Sequence record: NC_019500.1
DNA length: 64,000 nucleotides
Direction: 5' to 3' (one strand)
From: Escherichia phage Bp7
In this document: in pieces, positions 28,404 through 38,270 of the stretch
Position numbering within the stretch: the stretch's first letter is position 1
Layout: every line of letters starts with the position of its first letter
Notes under the pieces: model-generated
What the model saw: only the letters and a program-made list of their open reading frames with translations
Told to the model about the DNA's origin: nothing
Database searches by the model: none
Program-made: the position numbers and the translations under genes

Positions 28404-29182
28404 AATATTTCCTCGAAAAATTTGGTAACCATTTTACCGTAATGCACATTAGGATAACCGGCTTTAATGGCTTCTTTTGTAAATTTACCAACTTTAAGCT
28501 TTCCTGTATTTATCCAAAGCTCTTTAAGCTCATCATACATTAACCAGTGTGGATATTTCTTAGCCAAAGTAGCTTGCCAATTTTTAGAATGGTCCTCAGA
28601 CCTAAACGATTTCTTTACACCTTTATTGGCTTTGCCAGCTTTTGAACACGTTTCATAATCTCCGGCTTTAATAGGTGTAAATCCTTTCATTGCTTTAGAC
28701 CTTTTGGCTATGGTCTCTTTGGATTGCTTGGAGCCTTTATTTTTGGTCCAAGCCTTTTCTAAAGCTTTTAATTTGGCTTCTGTTAATCCAACTTTAGCCA
28801 TAGCTTTTCGGTGTATTTCTCTTCGTTCATCAGTCCATTCATAAGAACCGTTTGTATTACCAATCATGGCTTCGCTTATTAATCTAGAAGCATTTTCTTT
28901 TAAAATGGAAATAGACCTAGAGCTTATCTCATTTAATCTTTTGCCACATGTCATACCAAATGCGGCACGCCATAATTTTCCACCTTGAGCTTTAGCCAAG
29001 ATTATATGGCCCAAAATATGTTCCCTAATAGTCAATGCAACTAAATTGTTAGGGTCATCGGAACCACCTATCGACTTAGGAATAATATGATGAATTTCGA
29101 TTTTACAGGGCGCAGTAGCTTTGGTCCATCCTCTGGACCTAGCATTCTCTATTAAATCATCGTAAATTTTCTGATAATTCAA
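28400..29182 (-). CDS. HNH homing endonuclease (free-standing, between uvsW and uvsW.1)
   Basis: 260 aa; HHIIPKSIGGSDDPNNLVALTIREH HNH motif; overlapping start/stop with neighbours. Confidence 0.75.
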   Translation of the reverse strand: MNYQKIYDDLIENARSRGWTKATAPCKIEIHHIIPKSIGGSDDPNNLVALTIREHILGHIILAKAQGGKLWRAAFGMTCGKRLNEISSRSISILKENASRLISEAMIGNTNGSYEWTDERREIHRKAMAKVGLTEAKLKALEKAWTKNKGSKQSKETIAKRSKAMKGFTPIKAGDYETCSKAGKANKGVKKSFRSEDHSKNWQATLAKKYPHWLMYDELKELWINTGKLKVGKFTKEAIKAGYPNVHYGKMVTKFFEEIL

Positions 29183-30682
29183 AGCTGCACCTCTTTCATA
29201 ACATAATTAAATTTCTCGTCGGCGTATCGTTGTATACGTTCCAATCCATGTTTCAGGCAATAATTTAAATGAACATATTTCTTTTTAGAATCTTTAGATT
29301 TAGGGCGGACTCCCATATCATCCACGAGGTCCCAGACTTGGGCCACTTGTTTGCTATCGTGCTTACGTAGAACACGCCCAATTGTTTGCAGAACAATGAT
29401 TTTAGATTTTACGCCGTGAGCAAATACAACGTGGTGAAGGTTCTTAACGGAAATACCAGTAGAGAACACACCATAACTTGCCACAACAATAATACCCTTA
29501 CCATTTTCCGCCATTACTTTCAGAGCATTACGCGTTTCGGTATTAACTTCACCTGATACGTAATAAACTTCTTTATGTTGCTCTTTAACCATTTCAAAAA
29601 GAGTTTTACCGTGTTCGATGTTTTTAAACATCAGGAATACGTTCTCTTCTTTCTTAGCGAGTTTAACAGCTAAATTAGCAACCCATTTATTACGACGAGT
29701 AGCCTTAGTAATGACCTTGATTTCTGATTGGTAATCTTTACCTTTCATCTTAACAGTGAATTCGTCTGGGTATCGAAGGAAAATACTGTTGATTTTAAGG
29801 TCGGTAACCTGTCCTTCTTCCATTAACTGGGAAGTGGATACCGGCTTAAACACATCACCAAACAAACCCATATATTGCATTAAATTAGCTTTACCATCTT
29901 TTAAAGAACCAGACAAACCGAATTTAAACATACAGTTGGTTAGGCCTTCGATGATAGTAGAAATAGATTTACCTGTAGCCAAATGGCATTCGTCGTTCAT
30001 AAACATACCGAACTGAGCAAACCATTCTTTAGGTTGCTTGATAGCAGTTTGATAAGTTGAAACGTAAATCATTGCATCAGAATCACGAGCAGTACCTGAA
30101 CGAATACCAAGCATTGCTGCTTTAGGGAACAATCGATAATCGATGAAGTCATTAATCATCTGGTCGACAAGTGCAGTAGTAGGAACCAGAATAAGGATTT
30201 TACCTTCATAGTTCTCAACGTAATATCGACTCAGGAGCGCCTGGATTAATGATTTACCTGCGGATGTAGGTAAATTCAGAATTGCACGACGTTTTGTCAG
30301 GCCGTTGTATACGGCTTCATTCTGATACCAATGAGGCTCAATCTTGGTAGACCCTGAATAAATTTCTTGAGAAGCTACCCATGAATCAAAATCTTCACGA
30401 GAAATATCTTCCTGTTCAAGAATACGCGGGTCAATCCACAGAGAATATTCAAATTGTTCAGCGAACTTTTTAATTTGAGGGACAAGTCCATAAGGGCAAG
30501 TTTACGGCAGTTACGTAATCTAGAAGAAGAAGACTTCCATCCCATTGCCCATAACGAAATTTAGGGTTGAATTTATATCCATCGGCTTCAAAGCTAAAAT
30601 AGTCTCTGAGTTCGTAGAATGTGGATTCATCACACTCAATACGAACATGACTAAAATTATCGAAATGTACTTGAATTTGCAT
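29179..30682 (-). CDS. uvsW: DNA/RNA helicase UvsW (apparent 1-nt frameshift near 30490)
   Basis: N-terminus MQIQVHFDNFSHVRIECDESTFYELRDYFSFEADGYKFNPKFRYGQWDG; after frame change continues ...PYGLVPQIKKF...LPTSAGKS...DECH...QTIGRVLR; matches T4 UvsW in two frames. Confidence 0.8.
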
Positions 30683-30737: not shown

Positions 30738-31409
30738 ATGGATACTCAATATATTGAAGAGCTTCGTGCACTCGAAGATAAAAAAGAAGCTAAAGCTAAG
30801 TTAATCGAATACGGCGAACAGTTCGGTTTAAAACTTAAGAAAACCCGTTCGTTTGATAATTTGATTATCGATATCTCTGAAGGCCTTAAAGCCCTGGCTG
30901 ATGAACCACTTCCAGAAACCGAAGGGTTGTCTATTTCTGATTTGATTGATGCTGATAACGAACTCACCGGTGGTAATGACTTTATCGAAGGTGTAGAACC
31001 AGCTAAAGAAGAAGCCACCCTGTTGTTCGATGCTCCTGAGGCTGTAGTCGAAGTCATTGAGGTAGCCGAACTTCCTAAGGTCGAGATTATTGAAGAAGAT
31101 GTCCCATTTGACGAAGAGAAATTCAAAGAGGCTGTAGCCAAGGTTGTTGAATTGGAAAAACCTGTATTCTCTTTACCTGAAAACTTCAGCCCTAATCTTT
31201 TGCTTATCGGTAAGAACCCTGGCTATTGCACCGTTCCTTGGTGGATTTACCAATGGATTTCTGAGACCCCGGATTGGAAAGAACGTCCAACTGCTTTCCA
31301 ACATCCTTCTGCCCACCAAACATTATTTAGTCTGATTTATTACATTAATCGTAATGGTTCAGTATTAGTACGTGAAACTCGTAACTCATCTTTTGTCACT
31401 TTAAAATAA
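30738..31409 (+). CDS. inh: Inhibitor of prohead protease Inh
   Basis: 223 aa; position between uvsW and hoc; size matches T4 Inh. Confidence 0.7.
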   Translation: MDTQYIEELRALEDKKEAKAKLIEYGEQFGLKLKKTRSFDNLIIDISEGLKALADEPLPETEGLSISDLIDADNELTGGNDFIEGVEPAKEEATLLFDAPEAVVEVIEVAELPKVEIIEEDVPFDEEKFKEAVAKVVELEKPVFSLPENFSPNLLLIGKNPGYCTVPWWIYQWISETPDWKERPTAFQHPSAHQTLFSLIYYINRNGSVLVRETRNSSFVTLK

Positions 31410-31418
31410 GGGTTTATT

Positions 31419-32267
31419 ATGGCTTATACCGTAGATATGGCTCCTTTGGCGGCTACGGCCGTTATTGGAGCAACAACCAATTTCACTGCGACCGGTTCCG
31501 GTGCTGCAGCTGAAGGTACCGAATCATTTGTCTGGACCGTTGATGGCGTTCCTCAATCTTCTGTGACTGCTGCAATGGATTATGTTGCTGTTGGCCCGGC
31601 AGGCAGCAAGACTATTAAAGTTGTTGCAACAACTACACCGGCGGACGGCGAACCAGAAACAGCTGAAGCCGAAACAACTTTAACTATCCAGAATAAAACC
31701 ATTTCCGGTGTTTCTGTGACATTAACCCCAGCTTCGATTAATGTTCCGGAAGGCACTCCAGCTTCTTTTAAAGCGGATGTGGTCGGCGCTCCTGCTGGTG
31801 CTACTTTTGCCTATTCTTGGAAGAAAGACGGTTCTCCTGTAGTTGGCACCACGGATACTCTAGCAATCGATACAAGCACTGAAGGTTCACAGGTTATTGA
31901 AGTTTCTGTTGTGGTTTCGGCGACTGATTATAACCCGGCGACTGTCACAAAAACCGGTAATGTAACAGTCACGGCTAAAGTCGCACCGGTTCCGGATGGC
32001 GAATTACCTTACGTTCATCCACTCCCTGTTCGTAATTCAGCATATATTTGGGTTGGTTGGTGGGTTATGGATGAAATCCAGAAAATGACTCTTGAAGGCA
32101 AAGACTGGAAAACAGATGACCCGGATAGCCCGTATTATTTGCACCGATATACACTTCAAAAAATGATTACCGACTATCCAGAGGTTGATGTACAAGAATC
32201 TCGTAATGGTCGAATTATTCATCGCACCGCTTTAGAAGCTGGTATTATATACGATTACGTTTACTAA
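31419..32267 (+). CDS. hoc: Outer capsid protein Hoc (shortened)
   Basis: Ig-like repeats and conserved capsid-binding C-terminus ...LPYVHPLPVRNSAYIWVGWWVMDEIQKMT...YYLHRYTLQKM...; 282 aa vs 376 in T4. Confidence 0.85.
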   Translation: MAYTVDMAPLAATAVIGATTNFTATGSGAAAEGTESFVWTVDGVPQSSVTAAMDYVAVGPAGSKTIKVVATTTPADGEPETAEAETTLTIQNKTISGVSVTLTPASINVPEGTPASFKADVVGAPAGATFAYSWKKDGSPVVGTTDTLAIDTSTEGSQVIEVSVVVSATDYNPATVTKTGNVTVTAKVAPVPDGELPYVHPLPVRNSAYIWVGWWVMDEIQKMTLEGKDWKTDDPDSPYYLHRYTLQKMITDYPEVDVQESRNGRIIHRTALEAGIIYDYVY

Positions 32268-32270
32268 TTA

Positions 32271-32291
32271 TGGGCCGCAAGGCCCATTTTG
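32271..32291 (+). terminator. Rho-independent terminator TGGGCCGCAAGGCCCA + TTTT
   Basis: Hairpin plus T run after hoc. Confidence 0.6.
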
Positions 32292-32581
32292 CATTAAAGT
32301 ACAAAATTCCTGTTTACAAGGACTCTAGTCTATGTTAAGATGGGTTTACCAACTCAACGAGAGAATTGTTATGGATAAGGTTAAAGTACATTTTTTACAC
32401 GAATCCGGGTTGAATTTTATAGAAATTGCTAAAAAAATGGGCGGGACCGCTAAGGATATGGCCAAAGCATGGGTTGATGTAGAACAAGCCTAGAGCCAAA
32501 TTTAAAGCGAAAGAAAAGGTTGTTTATCGTAAAAGATTGAACAACAAGGTTCGGCGCAAAGCGCGTTCTGGTTCAAAGTAA

Positions 32582-32609
32582 TATGCTTTAAATTTAGGTG
32601 TGATATAAT
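32582..32609 (+). promoter_or_regulatory. Putative middle promoter (MotA box TATGCTTTA, 13 nt, TATAAT) upstream of rnlB
   Basis: Motif match. Confidence 0.5.
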
Positions 32610-32695
32610 GAGTCTAGGTCCTTCCGTTAAACCATTTGGCTTGGTGACAGAAGACTACTAGCTCTTCTATTTAATTATATTTATTATGGTGATTT

Positions 32696-33703
32696 ATGTT
32701 CAAGAAATATAGCAGTCTCGAAAACCACTACAACAGTAAGTTTATCGAAAAACTCCGTACTAATGGTTTGACTGGTGGTGAATGGGTAGCACGTGAGAAG
32801 ATTCATGGAACCAACTTTAGTTTAATCATAGAACGTGACGCAGTCACATGCGCCAAGCGCACTGGCCCTATCCTCCCTGCTGAAGATTTCTATGGTTATG
32901 AAATTGTACTTAAGAACTACGCTGATTCTATTAAATCAGTTCAACATCTAATTGAATCGATTAATTATCAGTCATACCAGATTTATGGCGAATTCGCTGG
33001 GACAGGTATCCAGAAGAATGTGGACTACGGCGATAAAGACTTTTATGTGTTCGATATCCGAGTTACTAAAGAAGATGGCTCAGAATCTGTTCTAACCGAT
33101 ACATTGATGGAAGCCTTCTGTATTATCCATAAGTTTAAGGTAGCTCCATGTCTGGCCACTGGTAGCTTTGAAGACCTTATTAAACTTCCTAATGATTTTG
33201 ATTCAGTTGTTCCTGATTATAATTTTGCAGTGGATAACGCAGGCTTAACTATTGCAAACTCAACCGATTTTATTCCTAAGGTAGAAGGTAAGGTATTCAC
33301 GGCTGAAGGCTTTGTATTGAAACCTGATGTTCCTACCTGGCTTCCAAACGGAAATCGTGTGGCGATTAAATGTAAGAACTCTAAATTCAGCGAGAAGAAA
33401 AAGTCTGATAAGCCTATTAAAGTTGCAGTGGTTTTATCCCAAGATGATATGGATTTGATGTGGCAATTCACTGATTATGTGACTGTTAACCGCATTAACA
33501 ATGTCATCAGTAAGATTGGCGAAGTATCGCCGAAGGATTTCGGAAAGGTGATGGGCTTGACAGTCCAGGATATCCTTGAAGAAGCCGCCCGTGAAGAATT
33601 GGAATTAACTGATGCGGAAAATCCCGTTGAAGTTAAAAAGCAGCTCGTTGAGTGTGTAAAAGAAACATTAAGACATGTATGGATTGAACTAGTATCCAAA
33701 TAA
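32696..33703 (+). CDS. rnlB: RNA ligase 2
   Basis: [20 protein letters not shown]...[10 protein letters not shown] (KxHG adenylation motif); near-identical to T4 Rnl2. Confidence 0.9.
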
Positions 33704-33710
33704 ACGATAA

Positions 33711-33738
33711 AGGGACCGTAAGGTCCCTTTTATTTTTC
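33711..33738. terminator. Bidirectional terminator AGGGACCGTAAGGTCCCT + T-tract
   Basis: Hairpin between convergent rnlB and gene 24 paralog. Confidence 0.6.
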
Positions 33739-35010
33739 TAAAGGCGGTAATTTTACGCCGAGATAAGAACTCAATTGACTTTGATTAGCCATTTTGTCCA
33801 TATCAGAACCATCAATAATGCGGGCTTCTTTATCGTCCTTAGCGACGGTATAAGGGTTTGCAGTCAATGCATAACGAGCAAGCAATGCTACTGTAGGTTG
33901 TAAGCTTTCCGGGTCAACAATAACCTTAAATTCACCAACTGAAGTATCACCTTCTTCGTCAACCACATTCAAACCTTCCGTATAAGGCGCATAATATAAA
34001 GATGCGACCGTCTGTCCTTCACCCATCTGGGCATTTACACCAACAATAACATAATCACATGGACTATTCATATCAGCATAAAGTGGTAGGCCATTCTTTA
34101 ATATACCATAAGCCAATTCGTCCTGGTCTTCCTTTTTCTCAACCCAACCAGAGGCGGCGAGAATAGCAGCACAACGAGAACTAGCTACTGCATAAGTCCC
34201 GGCAAAAGAAGTCTGTCGTTGGACGGCAGAGTTCATCTCACACATATAATAATATAATGTGCGAGCACGGTCCTGGGCATTATCGTAGCGAGGGTTGGTA
34301 AGGTCTAATACACCCTTTTCAGAAACACCCTGGACTTTAAAACGAGAGCTCACGGTAATTAATGACTGTAATACATCCTTATTAATTTCTTCTGCCATTT
34401 GAATGCCTAGCAGATTTTCAACGAAATTAGGAGCATTAAACCCGTTAGATTCTAGGTCTTGGGCTAATTCGACTGTCAATGAAGTTTTCAGTTTACGTGA
34501 TTTAACTTCAGATTGCCATTTGTCGATGCGGAATCCGGTTTCAGCAATTTCAGGATGGCCTTGTTCAAATTTAGAAGTAATAGCAGCATCCGACACCATA
34601 CGGATATGGCCGGCTGCCACTGCTTCAGAAATAACTTCGCTGAGGTTGGTTTCTGTGGTTCCGGCGAAAGGAGATGCTTCTAGAACTTTAAACACTACGC
34701 TTTCAAACTGGAACATATCACCGACCGCATAAGCTGTAGATGAATCAGTAAATTCTGGAATATTTTCACGTTCCGTCATACCAATCTGGCCCGCAAATGT
34801 TGCTCCACCAAGATAAGTCATTTTGTCGTCAGGGTTCAGTACACGTACCCCATACAGAGCAGCAACCGGTTGATTTGTTTTTTGTTCAGCAACTAGGGCT
34901 TTAAAGATTCGTTTATTAGTTGCTTGGGTGTATGAAAGAAGAGCAGGACGGCCAACCGAGCTGGCAGCCGTCAATGTGGATTCTTTAATTAGGTCTACAA
35001 TCTTAGACAT
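33730..35010 (-). CDS. Capsid vertex protein gp24 paralog (divergent second copy)
   Basis: 426 aa; gp24/gp23-fold conserved blocks (KSRKLKTSLTVELAQDLESNGF, YYAPYTEGL, RYALTANPYTVAKDDKEARIID). Confidence 0.85.
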   Translation of the reverse strand: MSKIVDLIKESTLTAASSVGRPALLSYTQATNKRIFKALVAEQKTNQPVAALYGVRVLNPDDKMTYLGGATFAGQIGMTERENIPEFTDSSTAYAVGDMFQFESVVFKVLEASPFAGTTETNLSEVISEAVAAGHIRMVSDAAITSKFEQGHPEIAETGFRIDKWQSEVKSRKLKTSLTVELAQDLESNGFNAPNFVENLLGIQMAEEINKDVLQSLITVSSRFKVQGVSEKGVLDLTNPRYDNAQDRARTLYYYMCEMNSAVQRQTSFAGTYAVASSRCAAILAASGWVEKKEDQDELAYGILKNGLPLYADMNSPCDYVIVGVNAQMGEGQTVASLYYAPYTEGLNVVDEEGDTSVGEFKVIVDPESLQPTVALLARYALTANPYTVAKDDKEARIIDGSDMDKMANQSQLSSYLGVKLPPLEK

Positions 35011-36293
35011 TAATCAGCCTCGTAAATAATTGCCGGAAGTTTAACGCCAACCAGATAAGACATATTGCTCTGTCCAGCCATTAAATCCATATTGGTTGCA
35101 TCGATAACACGAGCTTCTTTATCGTCTTTAGCCACGGTGTACGGGTTAGCTGATAGTGCATAACGAACCATCAGAGAAATAGAAGGTTGTAATGAATCCG
35201 GGTCAACAATAACCTTATAAGCACCGACGTGTTCTTGGTCATCTAAATCTAAGCCTTCGGTATAGGGAGCGTAGAAAATAGAACCGACAACTTCATTACC
35301 GCCGTAATTCTCTTTAACACCAACGGTAACATAATCTAATGGACTGTTAACGTCACAAAACAGAGGCAGACCATTCAACAAATATCCGTATGCAGTTTCC
35401 GGAAGCCAATTATTATCTTCGGGTTTATGTTTTAACCAGCCAGAACCTGCAAGCATTGCAGCCACACGACTTGAAGCCACAACAAACGTGCCAGAATAAG
35501 AAGTAGTTTTCTGGATTTCAGAATTCATCTCACAAACGAGTTCATAAAGTTTACGTGCAGATTCAGGAGCACTGTCATAAGACAAATCGATGATGCCGTT
35601 ATCAGATACACCAGTAACTTTATAACGTTTGGATACGGTTATTAGAGATTGCAGAACGTCTTTATTAATTTCATCTGCCATTACTGTAGCCAAGAGGTCT
35701 TCTAAGAACGCCGGCGCGTCAAAGCCATTTGATTCCATATCCTGCGCTAATTCTACAGTCAAAGCCGTCTTCAATTTACGGGTCTTAACCGGAGCATTCC
35801 ATTTATTAACCTGGAATACGGCATCAGAGATTTCTACATCACTCGCTTCAAATTTAGTGGTATGGGCAGCATCAGGAACCAGACGACATGTTAATGACAC
35901 TAAACCTTCTTGAAGAGCATCAGCCAATTCTGTGGCGCTAGTGGACGCGAGTGGGCTTGCTTTAAGAGCCTTATAAACCACATTCTGATACTTGAAATAT
36001 TCACCCTGAGCAATCGCCTGGGCCTTATCTGTGAGTTCTGGGATAGTTTCACGGTCTTTAGAACCAACTTCACCACCATAAGAGGCACCTGTCTGGAAAC
36101 TAAATTCATTATCAGGGGTAAGATATTTGACACCATACAGTGCAGCAATAGGCTGGCTAGTACGTTGTTCGGCGATAATATCACGGTAAATCAATTTGGT
36201 TGTAGCACGGGTCAAAGCAACAAGATTAGGGCGACCCAATGAGTTGCTGGAAGTAGTTGTTGACTCGCGCAGTAATTCGTTAATCTTTGCCAT
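35010..36293 (-). CDS. 24: Capsid vertex protein gp24
   Basis: 427 aa; MAKINELLRESTTTSSNSLGRPNLVALTRATTKLIY... matches T4 gp24. Confidence 0.9.
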   Translation of the reverse strand: MAKINELLRESTTTSSNSLGRPNLVALTRATTKLIYRDIIAEQRTSQPIAALYGVKYLTPDNEFSFQTGASYGGEVGSKDRETIPELTDKAQAIAQGEYFKYQNVVYKALKASPLASTSATELADALQEGLVSLTCRLVPDAAHTTKFEASDVEISDAVFQVNKWNAPVKTRKLKTALTVELAQDMESNGFDAPAFLEDLLATVMADEINKDVLQSLITVSKRYKVTGVSDNGIIDLSYDSAPESARKLYELVCEMNSEIQKTTSYSGTFVVASSRVAAMLAGSGWLKHKPEDNNWLPETAYGYLLNGLPLFCDVNSPLDYVTVGVKENYGGNEVVGSIFYAPYTEGLDLDDQEHVGAYKVIVDPDSLQPSISLMVRYALSANPYTVAKDDKEARVIDATNMDLMAGQSNMSYLVGVKLPAIIYEAD

Positions 36294-36321
36294 TGCGCTT
36301 TCCTTATTGAGGGTATATGTT

Positions 36322-36329
36322 TATTTATA
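36322..36329 (-). promoter_or_regulatory. Late promoter TATAAATA (minus) for gene 24
   Basis: Exact octamer about 30 nt upstream of gene 24 start. Confidence 0.55.
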
Positions 36330-36335
36330 AAAGTT

Positions 36336-36365
36336 GTTTACAGCAAGATTCTCACATGTTACTAT
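36336..36365 (+). promoter_or_regulatory. Putative early promoter (GTTTAC, 18 nt, TACTAT)
   Basis: Motif match. Confidence 0.5.
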
Positions 36366-36394
36366 AGACCTATCAAAACATGAGGAGATTAAAA

Positions 36395-36661
36395 ATGAAC
36401 AAGTTAAACTTTATTCGTACTACTCTTTCCGCTCTTGATAAAGACATCAAAGCTCTGGTAGAAAAATTCGGTAACAATCCTAATGGTAATGCAGTGAATG
36501 CCTTAGTTAAGAAATACGAAGCCATGGCTTATGCTACCGACTTCTGGTGGAACGGTGAATACTCTACCCATACCAAAGACAAATCTGGTAACTGGCTGAA
36601 AATCCAAGAAAATCGTATTGACTTCCGTGATATCATCAACCGCCGAGTTAAGATTGCATAA
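36395..36661 (+). CDS. Hypothetical small protein, antisense-oriented between genes 24 and 23
   Basis: 88 aa; RBS gaggag 7 nt upstream; own promoter and terminator. Confidence 0.55.
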   Translation: MNKLNFIRTTLSALDKDIKALVEKFGNNPNGNAVNALVKKYEAMAYATDFWWNGEYSTHTKDKSGNWLKIQENRIDFRDIINRRVKIA

Positions 36662-36676
36662 TACAGAAACAAGAAT

Positions 36677-36700
36677 GGGAGACCGAAGTCTCCCATAATA
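36677..36700. terminator. Hairpin GGGAGACCGAAGTCTCCC between convergent ORF and gene 23
   Basis: Perfect 7-bp stem, tetraloop. Confidence 0.5.
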
Positions 36701-36710
36701 AGGTTATATC

Positions 36711-38270
36711 TTAGATACCTTTAACATATACGCGACGGAAGTAACCATTCAGACCAAGGCTGTTAACGATGTCAGGCATACCATTCTGGATACGTTTGGT
36801 AGGAGCCTGAGCAGCAGGGTCAGCGAACGGGTTGATACCGATACCGTAACGAGTTTTGAAGCCCATTACCGGTTGGAAGTTCTTCGGATCGGAACCACGC
36901 AGCGGGGTCAGTGCAACGTACGGAGCATAGTAGATACCTGCGTCCATTTCGTTAGCGCCTTTATAACCAATGGTGAAGTAATCGGAACGTGCATACTGGT
37001 CGATGTAAACGCGATATTTACCACCAAGAACACCGGCAAATACTGCTTTGGTTGTGTCAACGTTGAAACCTTGACCCAGACCTTGAGCTGCATAACTTAC
37101 AGAAGTATCAACTGCAGCCAGTACGTTAACTACGTTACGGGAAGCGATGATGAAGTTACCAGCACCACGACCGGTCTGACGAGCGATTTCCGCTGCTTCT
37201 TTATCAATCTGGAACAGAAGGGCTTTAAAGCTCTCACCGGCCCAACGAGCACCACGGATATCAATCGGGTCCTGGAAGTCAAACACACCAGCTTTAGCGC
37301 CGACGGTGTTAGTCATACCAGATTTACCAACCTGTGCAGAGTAGTTAATCCAATCGATAACTTCACGGTTGATTTCGAGCATAATTTCGGTAGCAAGGAT
37401 ACCGGACAGTTCAGCATCTGCATCCATACCGTGTACTGCACGAAGGTCCTGTGCCAGTTCGATAGAGTAGCTTGCTTTCAGCTGACGGGATTTAGCTTCG
37501 ATAACTTGTTTGTCGATGCGGAAGCCCATTTCGTTCCACGGGTTATCGGTAGAACCGTTAAAGCCTTCCTGAAGTTCAGCGATAGAAGTAGCCATACCTT
37601 CAGCCAATTCAGCCAACTTACCAGCTTCAATCAAAGCGGTAACAGCAGCATCCAGTTTAGCGGCATCAGTAGCAGCAGCATCAACGGTTACAGCTTCAAC
37701 AGCCTGGAAGTGTGCAGCACCGGTAGCTTCGAAGAAGTGGGAATAAATTTTACCAACTTCCAGAACTTTGCTTGCAGCCAGTGCTTCGAAAGATTTAGCA
37801 GCACCCTGACCAGAGAACATAGCGTCCGGAGAATACATCGGATGGAAAGCTTCTTTAGCGCCAGCAGCGATAGGGTCTTTACCATAAACTGCACGAAGGG
37901 CAAATACCTGGCCGGTAGGGTTATTCAGAGGCTGAACACCACAAATGTCAAAAGCAATCAGATGAGGAATAGCACGACGAACCATACCCATTACTGCCGG
38001 CCCAATCTGAGTTACAGCACCAGAAGTCTGGCCAGCTGCGATATTGGTAGCATCATAACCGTGGTCACCACCGATTTCAGCTTCGGTCAGGAAAGAACCA
38101 AATGCTTCAGAGATTTTTTCGTCACGATATTCCGGAGCAGTCAGGATGTCTTGTTCCTGGTTTTCGAAAATTTTAGCGATGATAGCTTGTTTAGAAGCAC
38201 CAACGATTTCAGGAAGAGCTTCGTTTTCCAGCAGAGCGGACCATTTTTGAACTAATGCATTCTTTTTCAT
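36711..38270 (-). CDS. 23: Major capsid protein gp23
   Basis: 519 aa; long identical stretches to T4 gp23 (GDHGYDATNIAAGQTSGAVTQIGPAVMGMVRRAIP..., C-terminus RVYVKGI). Confidence 0.95.
   Translation of the reverse strand: MKKNALVQKWSALLENEALPEIVGASKQAIIAKIFENQEQDILTAPEYRDEKISEAFGSFLTEAEIGGDHGYDATNIAAGQTSGAVTQIGPAVMGMVRRAIPHLIAFDICGVQPLNNPTGQVFALRAVYGKDPIAAGAKEAFHPMYSPDAMFSGQGAAKSFEALAASKVLEVGKIYSHFFEATGAAHFQAVEAVTVDAAATDAAKLDAAVTALIEAGKLAELAEGMATSIAELQEGFNGSTDNPWNEMGFRIDKQVIEAKSRQLKASYSIELAQDLRAVHGMDADAELSGILATEIMLEINREVIDWINYSAQVGKSGMTNTVGAKAGVFDFQDPIDIRGARWAGESFKALLFQIDKEAAEIARQTGRGAGNFIIASRNVVNVLAAVDTSVSYAAQGLGQGFNVDTTKAVFAGVLGGKYRVYIDQYARSDYFTIGYKGANEMDAGIYYAPYVALTPLRGSDPKNFQPVMGFKTRYGIGINPFADPAAQAPTKRIQNGMPDIVNSLGLNGYFRRVYVKGI

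Follow-up and report, generated by a model that had tools for sequence, protein, structure and literature searches.

Introduction

Bacteriophage T4 is the reference model of prolate capsid assembly, and one protein, gp24, fills all 11 non-portal vertices of its head. The T4-like phages also offer a precedent for a capsid-protein paralog specialized for a single lattice position, the older gp23-to-gp24 duplication (PMC9958956, PMC10580926). Here we analyze a stretch of 64,000 nucleotides from Escherichia phage Bp7 (NC_019500.1; "the window" hereafter), in which two tandem genes, 24a and 24b, both encode homologs of the vertex protein gp24. We find that both genes are under strong purifying selection and that the pair has been inherited together across five genera, with 24a remaining a canonical vertex protein and 24b departing from it mostly in the N-terminal arm. 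The principle is the same as in the gp23-to-gp24 duplication; however, gp23 and gp24 share ~20% identity and have proven roles as hexamer and pentamer, whereas 24a and 24b are 55% identical and a division of labor between them is only conjectural.

The gene pair is already known as a GenBank annotation, and has been since phage JS98, so that finding it again in Bp7 is the re-discovery of an annotated feature. The two genes are called "24a" and "24b" in JS98 (EF469154), JS10, and IME08, "capsid vertex protein I/II" in VR5 and VR26, "head vertex protein I/II" in CGG4-1, and simply "head vertex protein" twice elsewhere; the pair also corresponds to ORF179/180 of WG01 and to gp108/gp109 of S16. 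The 2564-bp region that holds the pair is 99.7-99.8% identical to that of Escherichia phages WG01, QL01, vB_EcoM_FB, E33, and others of the genus Dhakavirus, and is 93% identical to that of JS10 and 84% to that of JS98; the window is itself from a Dhakavirus. The JS98-like pair is the same feature as the one in the window: the gene order is 23, a small antisense open reading frame (ORF), 24a, 24b, rnlB, and nothing structural differs. In the accessible literature we found neither a functional account of the 24a/24b pair nor virion proteomics of any two-copy phage; the published proteomes of Morganella phage MP1 and Klebsiella phage ValerieMcCarty are those of single-copy phages. What the present work adds to the annotation is the distribution of the pair, the selection acting on it, its operon layout, the one-sided divergence, the old origin of 24b, and the cassette swap.

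Two tandem gp24 homologs in phage Bp7

A first-pass annotation of the window had proposed two tandem paralogs of gene 24, and the ORF list, BLASTP, Pfam, and phrog matches all bear this out. Gene 24a (35010-36293, minus strand) encodes a canonical capsid vertex protein of 427 amino acids (aa), and gene 24b (33730-35010, minus strand) encodes a divergent second vertex-protein paralog of 426 aa, both identified from the ORF list and by homology. The two proteins align over their full length with 55% identity and 77% positives (BLASTP, E = 7e-177), a likeness that chance cannot account for; the proposal of tandem gp24 paralogs is correct. Both also match Pfam PF07068 (Gp23; E about 1e-96 to 1e-98) and phrog_138. 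We place 24a in the gp24 family because it is 70% identical to T4 gp24, a value at which "nearly T4-like", as the upstream copy had been described, is an overstatement, canonical though the protein is in character. The corresponding identity of 24b is 57%.

24b matched T4 gp24 (PDB 1yue_A) end to end, over residues 1-423, with E = 1.4e-150, compared to ~1e-11 for gp23 chains. An AlphaFold2 (AF2) model of 24b had a predicted local distance difference test score (pLDDT) of 73.7, with residues 1-33, the N-arm, below 50. The best Foldseek matches of this model were T4 gp24 chains (5vf3_a, with template modeling (TM) scores of 0.82/0.84, then 7vrt_he and 1yue), and gp23 chains scored lower, at 0.52-0.64. 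24b is therefore predicted to share the HK97-type fold of T4 gp24, insertion domain included. Overall, 24a and 24b are full-length homologs of T4 gp24, nearer to gp24 than to gp23, 24b being the one that was measured against the gp23 chains.

The likeness to T4 gp24 (PDB 1YUE; 5VF3 chain a; 7VRT) covers full-length homology, the position after gene 23, a late promoter, and an N-terminal L-x-x-E↓S protease-site motif (the arrow marks the bond cleaved in T4). Inspection of the T4 locus confirmed that T4 has a single gene 24 at the same place, as the first-pass annotation had stated. In T4, one gene supplies one protein for all 11 vertices, whereas the window holds two genes, apparently in one late unit. 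The head module of Bp7 runs in the order 20, 67, 68, 21, 22, 23, the small antisense ORF, 24a, 24b, rnlB, 24.3, hoc, inh, uvsW.

A single late promoter for both genes

By motif search, we located a T4-type late promoter, TATAAATA, at 36322-36329 (minus strand), 28 nt upstream of the 24a start, and no further TATAAATA between 36293 and 33730. Direct reading of the window showed a Shine-Dalgarno-like AAGGAAAG (36298-36305, minus strand) upstream of the 24a ATG. At the junction of the two genes (35008-35021, minus strand), a GAGG ribosome-binding site within the final 24a codons precedes the 24b ATG by 7 nt, and the stop and start codons overlap as TAATG, such that the two ORFs share one base. 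A scan for terminators found a hairpin that resembles a bidirectional terminator, AAAGGGACC-TTAC-GGTCCCTTT, at the 24b stop (33709-33730, unstranded), which is common to the convergent rnlB, and another after gene 23 (36675-36696, minus strand), which parts the gene 23 transcript from the 24a-24b unit.

The same layout recurred in 10 two-copy loci from the five genera and metagenomes. Each had one promoter (TATAAATA in nine of the ten, a variant CATAAATA in the tenth), the 24a stop and the 24b start abutted or overlapped in all ten, and most had a Shine-Dalgarno-like motif within the last 24a codons. Since there is one promoter, the genes abut, and the terminator comes only after 24b, the pair most likely forms a bicistronic late operon with one late promoter for both genes. 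We infer from the junction that translation of 24b is coupled to that of 24a. The codon adaptation index was 0.46 for 24a and 0.41 for 24b; we had considered it as a proxy for expression, and the difference is too small to interpret.

24a and 24b are inherited together and kept under purifying selection

To see how widely the pair occurs, the phage collection was searched by tblastn with 24b as the query. Homologs of gp24 were found in 1417 phage records at 1534 places, giving 117 extra copies, and ~92% of the gp24-bearing records had one gene. These 117 extra copies are to be set against 115 records with a 24b ortholog, defined by at least 66% identity and E ≤ 1e-175; the gene was full length and intact in 115 of 115. 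The orthologs belong to Dhakavirus (E. coli), Gelderlandvirus (Salmonella, the S16 group), Kanagawavirus (Enterobacter and Kosakonia), Marfavirus (Klebsiella phages F48 and Marfa), and Roskildevirus (Erwinia phage Cronus). Four metagenomic contigs carried more distant 24b-like genes (66-70% identity), all of them intact. 24b lay directly downstream of a 24a-type gene in the window, in six annotated genomes, and in the four metagenomic contigs, and among the 24b-like genes examined it was never seen as the sole gp24; pairing of contigs by length agrees with this. A search for a donor lineage with a 24b-like sole gp24 returned nothing, and the closest single-copy proteins (Jiaodavirus type, 62%) are canonical.

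The 24b clade was monophyletic, with a support of 100% among 24 sequences and of 70-89% among 50. In a neighbor-joining (NJ) tree of the 24 sequences, its internal topology, Cronus,(F48,(IME523,(S16,Dhakavirus))), mirrored that of the partner 24a genes. Furthermore, the pairwise distances of 24a and 24b were correlated (r = 0.94, Mantel p = 2e-4). These patterns show that 24a and 24b are co-inherited across the five genera.

We estimated the ratio of non-synonymous to synonymous substitution rates (dN/dS) by the Nei-Gojobori method (NG86) for the window against JS98, and obtained 0.061 for 24a, 0.054 for 24b, and 0.095 for gp23. More distant comparisons were alike until dS saturated, as it did between genera. 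Purifying selection on each of the two genes is strong.

24b keeps the maturation-site motif and differs in the N-arm

In T4, the processed form gp24* is without the first 10 residues, which the prohead protease removes inside the prohead (PMC9958956). Alignment and analogy with T4 predict the same gp21 prohead-protease propeptide in both Bp7 proteins, in codons 1-10 of 24a (MAKINELLRE↓S; 36264-36293, minus strand) and in codons 1-10 of 24b (MSKIVDLIKE↓S; 34981-35010, minus strand). The residues L7, E10, and S11 of this L-x-x-E↓S motif were invariant in a 22-sequence alignment, in the 24a and 24b clades alike, and the motif was present in 21 of 21 database representatives of 24b-like clusters. 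Conservation of the cleavage site argues that 24b enters the prohead. Taken together, purifying selection, co-inheritance, and the conserved maturation site indicate that 24b is a functional gene.

We then compared the two proteins at 140 alignment columns, each with 95% or higher conservation across 22 single-copy gp24s. 24a keeps all 140, none being changed only in 24a, whereas 11 of the 140 differ in 24b alone, and eight of these fall within T4 residues 27-72. In T4 numbering, the 24b-only changes are L27Y, R29K, T32N, L34R, Y36F, K56R, Y57V, Y72F, T204I, E335Q, and H356S. Those in the N-arm form part of a signature, LLS[YF]T[QK]ATN[KR]RIF, which also includes V25L and A26S and reads LLSYTQATNKRIF in 24b of the window and LVALTRATTKLIY in canonical gp24. 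This signature, the KY-to-RV change at T4 residues 56-57, and E335Q mark the 24b clade, and all were found in 24b of the window and in 21 of 21 representatives. Relative to T4 gp24, 24b thus has fixed N-arm changes (T4 positions 25-36, 56-57, and 72) and three loop indels. Sites that discriminate 24b include insertions at residues 238-240 (NPR) and 355-357 (GDT) and a deletion after residue 296.

The N-terminal arm of T4 gp24 moves to the capsid surface and binds neighboring subunits. Structural work on T4 describes its contacts as mainly with neighboring subunits and capsomers (PMC9958956). By this comparison, nothing of the canonical vertex protein appears to be missing from 24a, and 24b resembles a vertex protein whose neighbor contacts are altered. 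The divergence is therefore a one-sided specialization; subfunctionalization in the sense of complementary degeneration, one of the outcomes that had been suggested for the pair, finds no support in columns that changed in one of the two proteins only.

The vertex locus as a swappable cassette

Dhakavirus MX01, a species recognized by the international committee for virus taxonomy (ICTV) and reported together with WG01 in one study, carries a single gp24 at this locus, as do ~19 further records, including AnYang, KIT01, C6, PSD9, and 04086. The genus, the locus, and the flanking genes are those of the window, but one 426-aa gp24 replaces the 2.56-kb pair. Compared to the window, MX01 is 99.5% identical in gp21, 99.3% in gp22, 98.1% in gp23, 98.2% in RnlB, 98.2% in Hoc, and 95.5% in Inh, whereas its gp24 shares 68% identity with 24a and 54% with 24b. 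In a sliding window, nucleotide identity to MX01 drops from 90-100% to ~70% at 36300-36394 (unstranded), over the promoter and the 24a start, which sets the left boundary of the cassette. The right boundary is marked by a return from ~50% to >90% identity that coincides exactly with the 24b stop and its terminator-like hairpin, at 33730. Since the MX01 head genes are near-identical and the single gp24 is different, the locus is a swappable cassette in which the 24a-24b pair moves as a unit. Judging from these sequences, either the pair or a single foreign gp24 can close gp23 lattices that are ~98% identical to each other, which suggests that the pair does the job of one gp24 and has no unrelated capsid function.

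Synonymous divergence was also raised within two-copy phages. Between the window and JS98, dS was 0.65 for 24a and 1.25 for 24b, compared to 0.10-0.38 for the flanking gp23, antisense ORF, rnlB, hoc, and inh. This excess over the flanks implies that old divergent alleles have been maintained or exchanged at the vertex locus. Among two-copy Dhakaviruses, the divergence island spans 33730-36330, as compared with flanks at 30738-38270.

S16 gp23 (L004, 1062-2621) grouped with that of Citrobacter Moonvirus NM4.3 (L012) with 100% bootstrap support, whereas S16 24a and 24b grouped with those of Dhakavirus. From this discordance of the gp23 tree with the 24a/24b tree, the head genes are mosaic among Tevenvirinae genera.

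A model for two vertex proteins, and its rivals

The explanation that we favor, at a probability of roughly 55%, has both proteins produced late from a single mRNA, entering the prohead, undergoing trimming after Glu10, and acting as penton subunits at the 11 non-portal vertices, with 24a the canonical form and 24b a variant whose N-arm contacts are altered. In this model, one late promoter would lead to transcription of both genes, and 24b would be translated by coupling to 24a. Both proteins would enter the prohead, where the gp21 protease would remove the first 10 residues of each, and the prolate head would have its 11 non-portal vertices occupied by 24a and 24b pentamers. The pair is inherited as one cassette, and recombination exchanges it for a single-gp24 cassette in close relatives. 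The sequences show that both genes are intact and under purifying selection, that they have an operon layout and are co-inherited, that the divergence is one-sided and the origin old, and that the cassette is swapped. We infer the presence of both proteins in virions, their cleavage, the homopentamers, and any partition of the vertices from sequence and from the T4 precedent.

Several observations weigh against this model. Proteomic, genetic, or cryo-electron microscopy evidence for 24b in virions was not found in the accessible literature. MX01-type heads, with 98% identical gp23 and a single gp24, indicate that the lattice itself needs no second vertex protein, and 24a, with all the canonical residues, might suffice alone. 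The structural meaning given to the N-arm substitutions would carry over from T4 only, and the N-arm is the part of the AF2 model with pLDDT below 50. Lastly, the slightly lower codon adaptation index of 24b is compatible with a lower abundance and is uninformative on location.

The vertices of a prolate head are not equivalent, comprising one apical vertex and five plus five around the caps. 24a and 24b might thus form separate pentamers at different vertex classes (for example, the one apical vertex on the five-fold axis as opposed to the ten "shoulder" vertices, or the five nearest the portal as opposed to all others), with the whole cassette exchanged under external selection such as host sensing or capsid stability in the gut. 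We regard this more specific scheme as possible though rather unlikely; the general idea of an alternative vertex composition, which the first-pass annotation had raised, is plausible.

The two proteins could also co-assemble within the same pentamers, in a stochastic or a fixed ratio. Coupled translation from one mRNA would place both subunits in the same place at the same time, and the correlated distances of the two clades are as expected for interacting partners, although co-inheritance alone gives an equal signal. However, two subunit types have no symmetric arrangement within a five-fold ring. Furthermore, A-domain and core positions are largely common to 24a and 24b, and the fixed differences lie in the N-arm, which mainly contacts neighboring subunits and capsomers (PMC9958956). 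Mixed pentons therefore seem improbable to us.

We consider it equally improbable that 24b is not a stable virion component and acts instead as an assembly or counter-defense factor, for example as a decoy or alternative target for a vertex-sensing host system, or as a helper of protease activation at the vertex. The vertex cassette does form a divergence island among head genes that are otherwise conserved, near-identical phages exchange entire alleles in a pattern typical of diversifying pressure, and attachment of T4 gp24 is thought to trigger activation of the gp21 protease (PMC9958956). Against this, 24b keeps the complete architecture, length, and cleavage motif of gp24 and evolves under strong constraint within its clade. 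A decoy would not need all of the conserved lattice-contact blocks, and no gp24-triggered defense system was found in the accessible literature.

The age and origin of 24b

The adjacency, the same orientation, and the nearly equal length of 24a and 24b, together with the restriction of 24b to a set of related genera, would fit a recent in-place tandem duplication of 24a followed by fast evolution of 24b, and a recent duplication was also implied by the first-pass annotation. The trees speak against it: with 24 and with 50 sequences, 24b was never sister to 24a in NJ trees and instead branched outside the canonical gp24s of Tevenvirinae, Acinetobacter Twarogvirinae, Tegunavirus, and Shewanella phage Thanatos, with a weak support of 40-53%. 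This deep placement is based on the NJ trees, with that support, and on Tajima relative-rate tests, in which the unique changes of 24a and 24b were equal in number (53 versus 43 and 28 versus 28, with Phi1 or gp23 as outgroup), so that 24b shows no acceleration. In common with KpV477, Thanatos, Phi1, and Kimel, 24b also retains ancestral states that 24a and T4 have lost, namely SSRF and an extended loop close to T4 residue 237. Indels were considered as phylogenetic markers and set aside, being homoplastic at the loop of T4 residues 293-300. A recent duplication is thus quite improbable. 24b is better described as a probable old lineage than as a recent copy of 24a, having arisen either by an ancient duplication followed by many losses or by acquisition from an unsampled T4-like lineage.

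That 24b is a redundant or decaying duplicate, dispensable and not yet lost, is very improbable: T4 and the ~92% of gp24-bearing records manage with one gene and the MX01-type Dhakaviruses lack 24b, but its functional status as argued above rules out decay, the gene being intact in every record and metagenomic contig examined, with a low dN/dS, a dS saturated between genera, the cleavage motif kept, and persistence across five genera while the proteins diverged to 66% identity, and in MX01 a foreign single allele replaces both 24a and 24b, which is not a simple loss of 24b.

Additional observations at and around the locus

Between gene 23 and 24a lies the antisense ORF of 93 aa (36380-36661, plus strand), in the place where T4, by comparison of the two loci, has the segD homing endonuclease gene. 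It matches phrog_6003 (no assigned function, E = 8e-50), has no Pfam match, and is kept in Dhakavirus (JS98 orf173 and MX01 ORF174, 95-98% identity).

Two labels in the record of Enterobacter phage vB_EhoM-IME523 are misannotations. QEA10671.1 (L005, 7870-9275), labeled "capsid vertex protein gp24", is a Hoc homolog, 48% identical to Hoc of the window over 189 aa and without similarity to 24a or 24b; in the same record, 24a is labeled "major capsid protein".

The single gp24 of 04086 was considered as a 24a/24b chimera owing to a long BLASTN high-scoring segment pair that extends from the 3' part of this gene into 24b. A sliding window over the protein placed it closer to 24a throughout, and the extension into 24b is explained by paralogous similarity. 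In 04086 (OR842557.1; L013, 2962-3641), the interval from gene 23 to the antisense ORF includes ~680 nt with no counterpart in the window; the related vB_EcoM_005 annotates a homing endonuclease between the same two genes. The 04086 head genes are fragmented, and with 148 features annotated in 177 kb the record has the look of an assembly prone to error; MX01, which is well annotated, served as the single-gp24 reference in place of this noisy assembly.

Further along the window, uvsW (30470-30682 and 29179-30159, minus strand) is out of frame compared to WG01 and MX01. Small insertions of +2 and +5 nt (30496-30514) leave a 70-aa N-terminal ORF and the remainder in another frame (…PYGLVPQIKKFAEQ…), and this break reflects either an error of sequencing or assembly or a gene that is truly disrupted. 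At its 3' end (29150-29420), uvsW also diverges sharply from that of WG01, which suggests mosaicism.

Implications for T4-like capsids

A widespread, selectively maintained second vertex protein in 115 phages of five genera, with E. coli, Salmonella, Klebsiella, Enterobacter, and Erwinia as hosts, suggests that the T4 picture of one protein at every non-portal vertex falls short for a sizeable set of phages that are candidates for therapy. If 24a and 24b do form separate pentamers at different vertex classes, these phages would use position-specific pentons. The natural swap between one-gene and two-gene cassettes, with the other head proteins 95-99% identical, provides a ready-made isogenic system, and could help to show what a second penton protein adds in stability, in fidelity of assembly, or in escape from host sensing.

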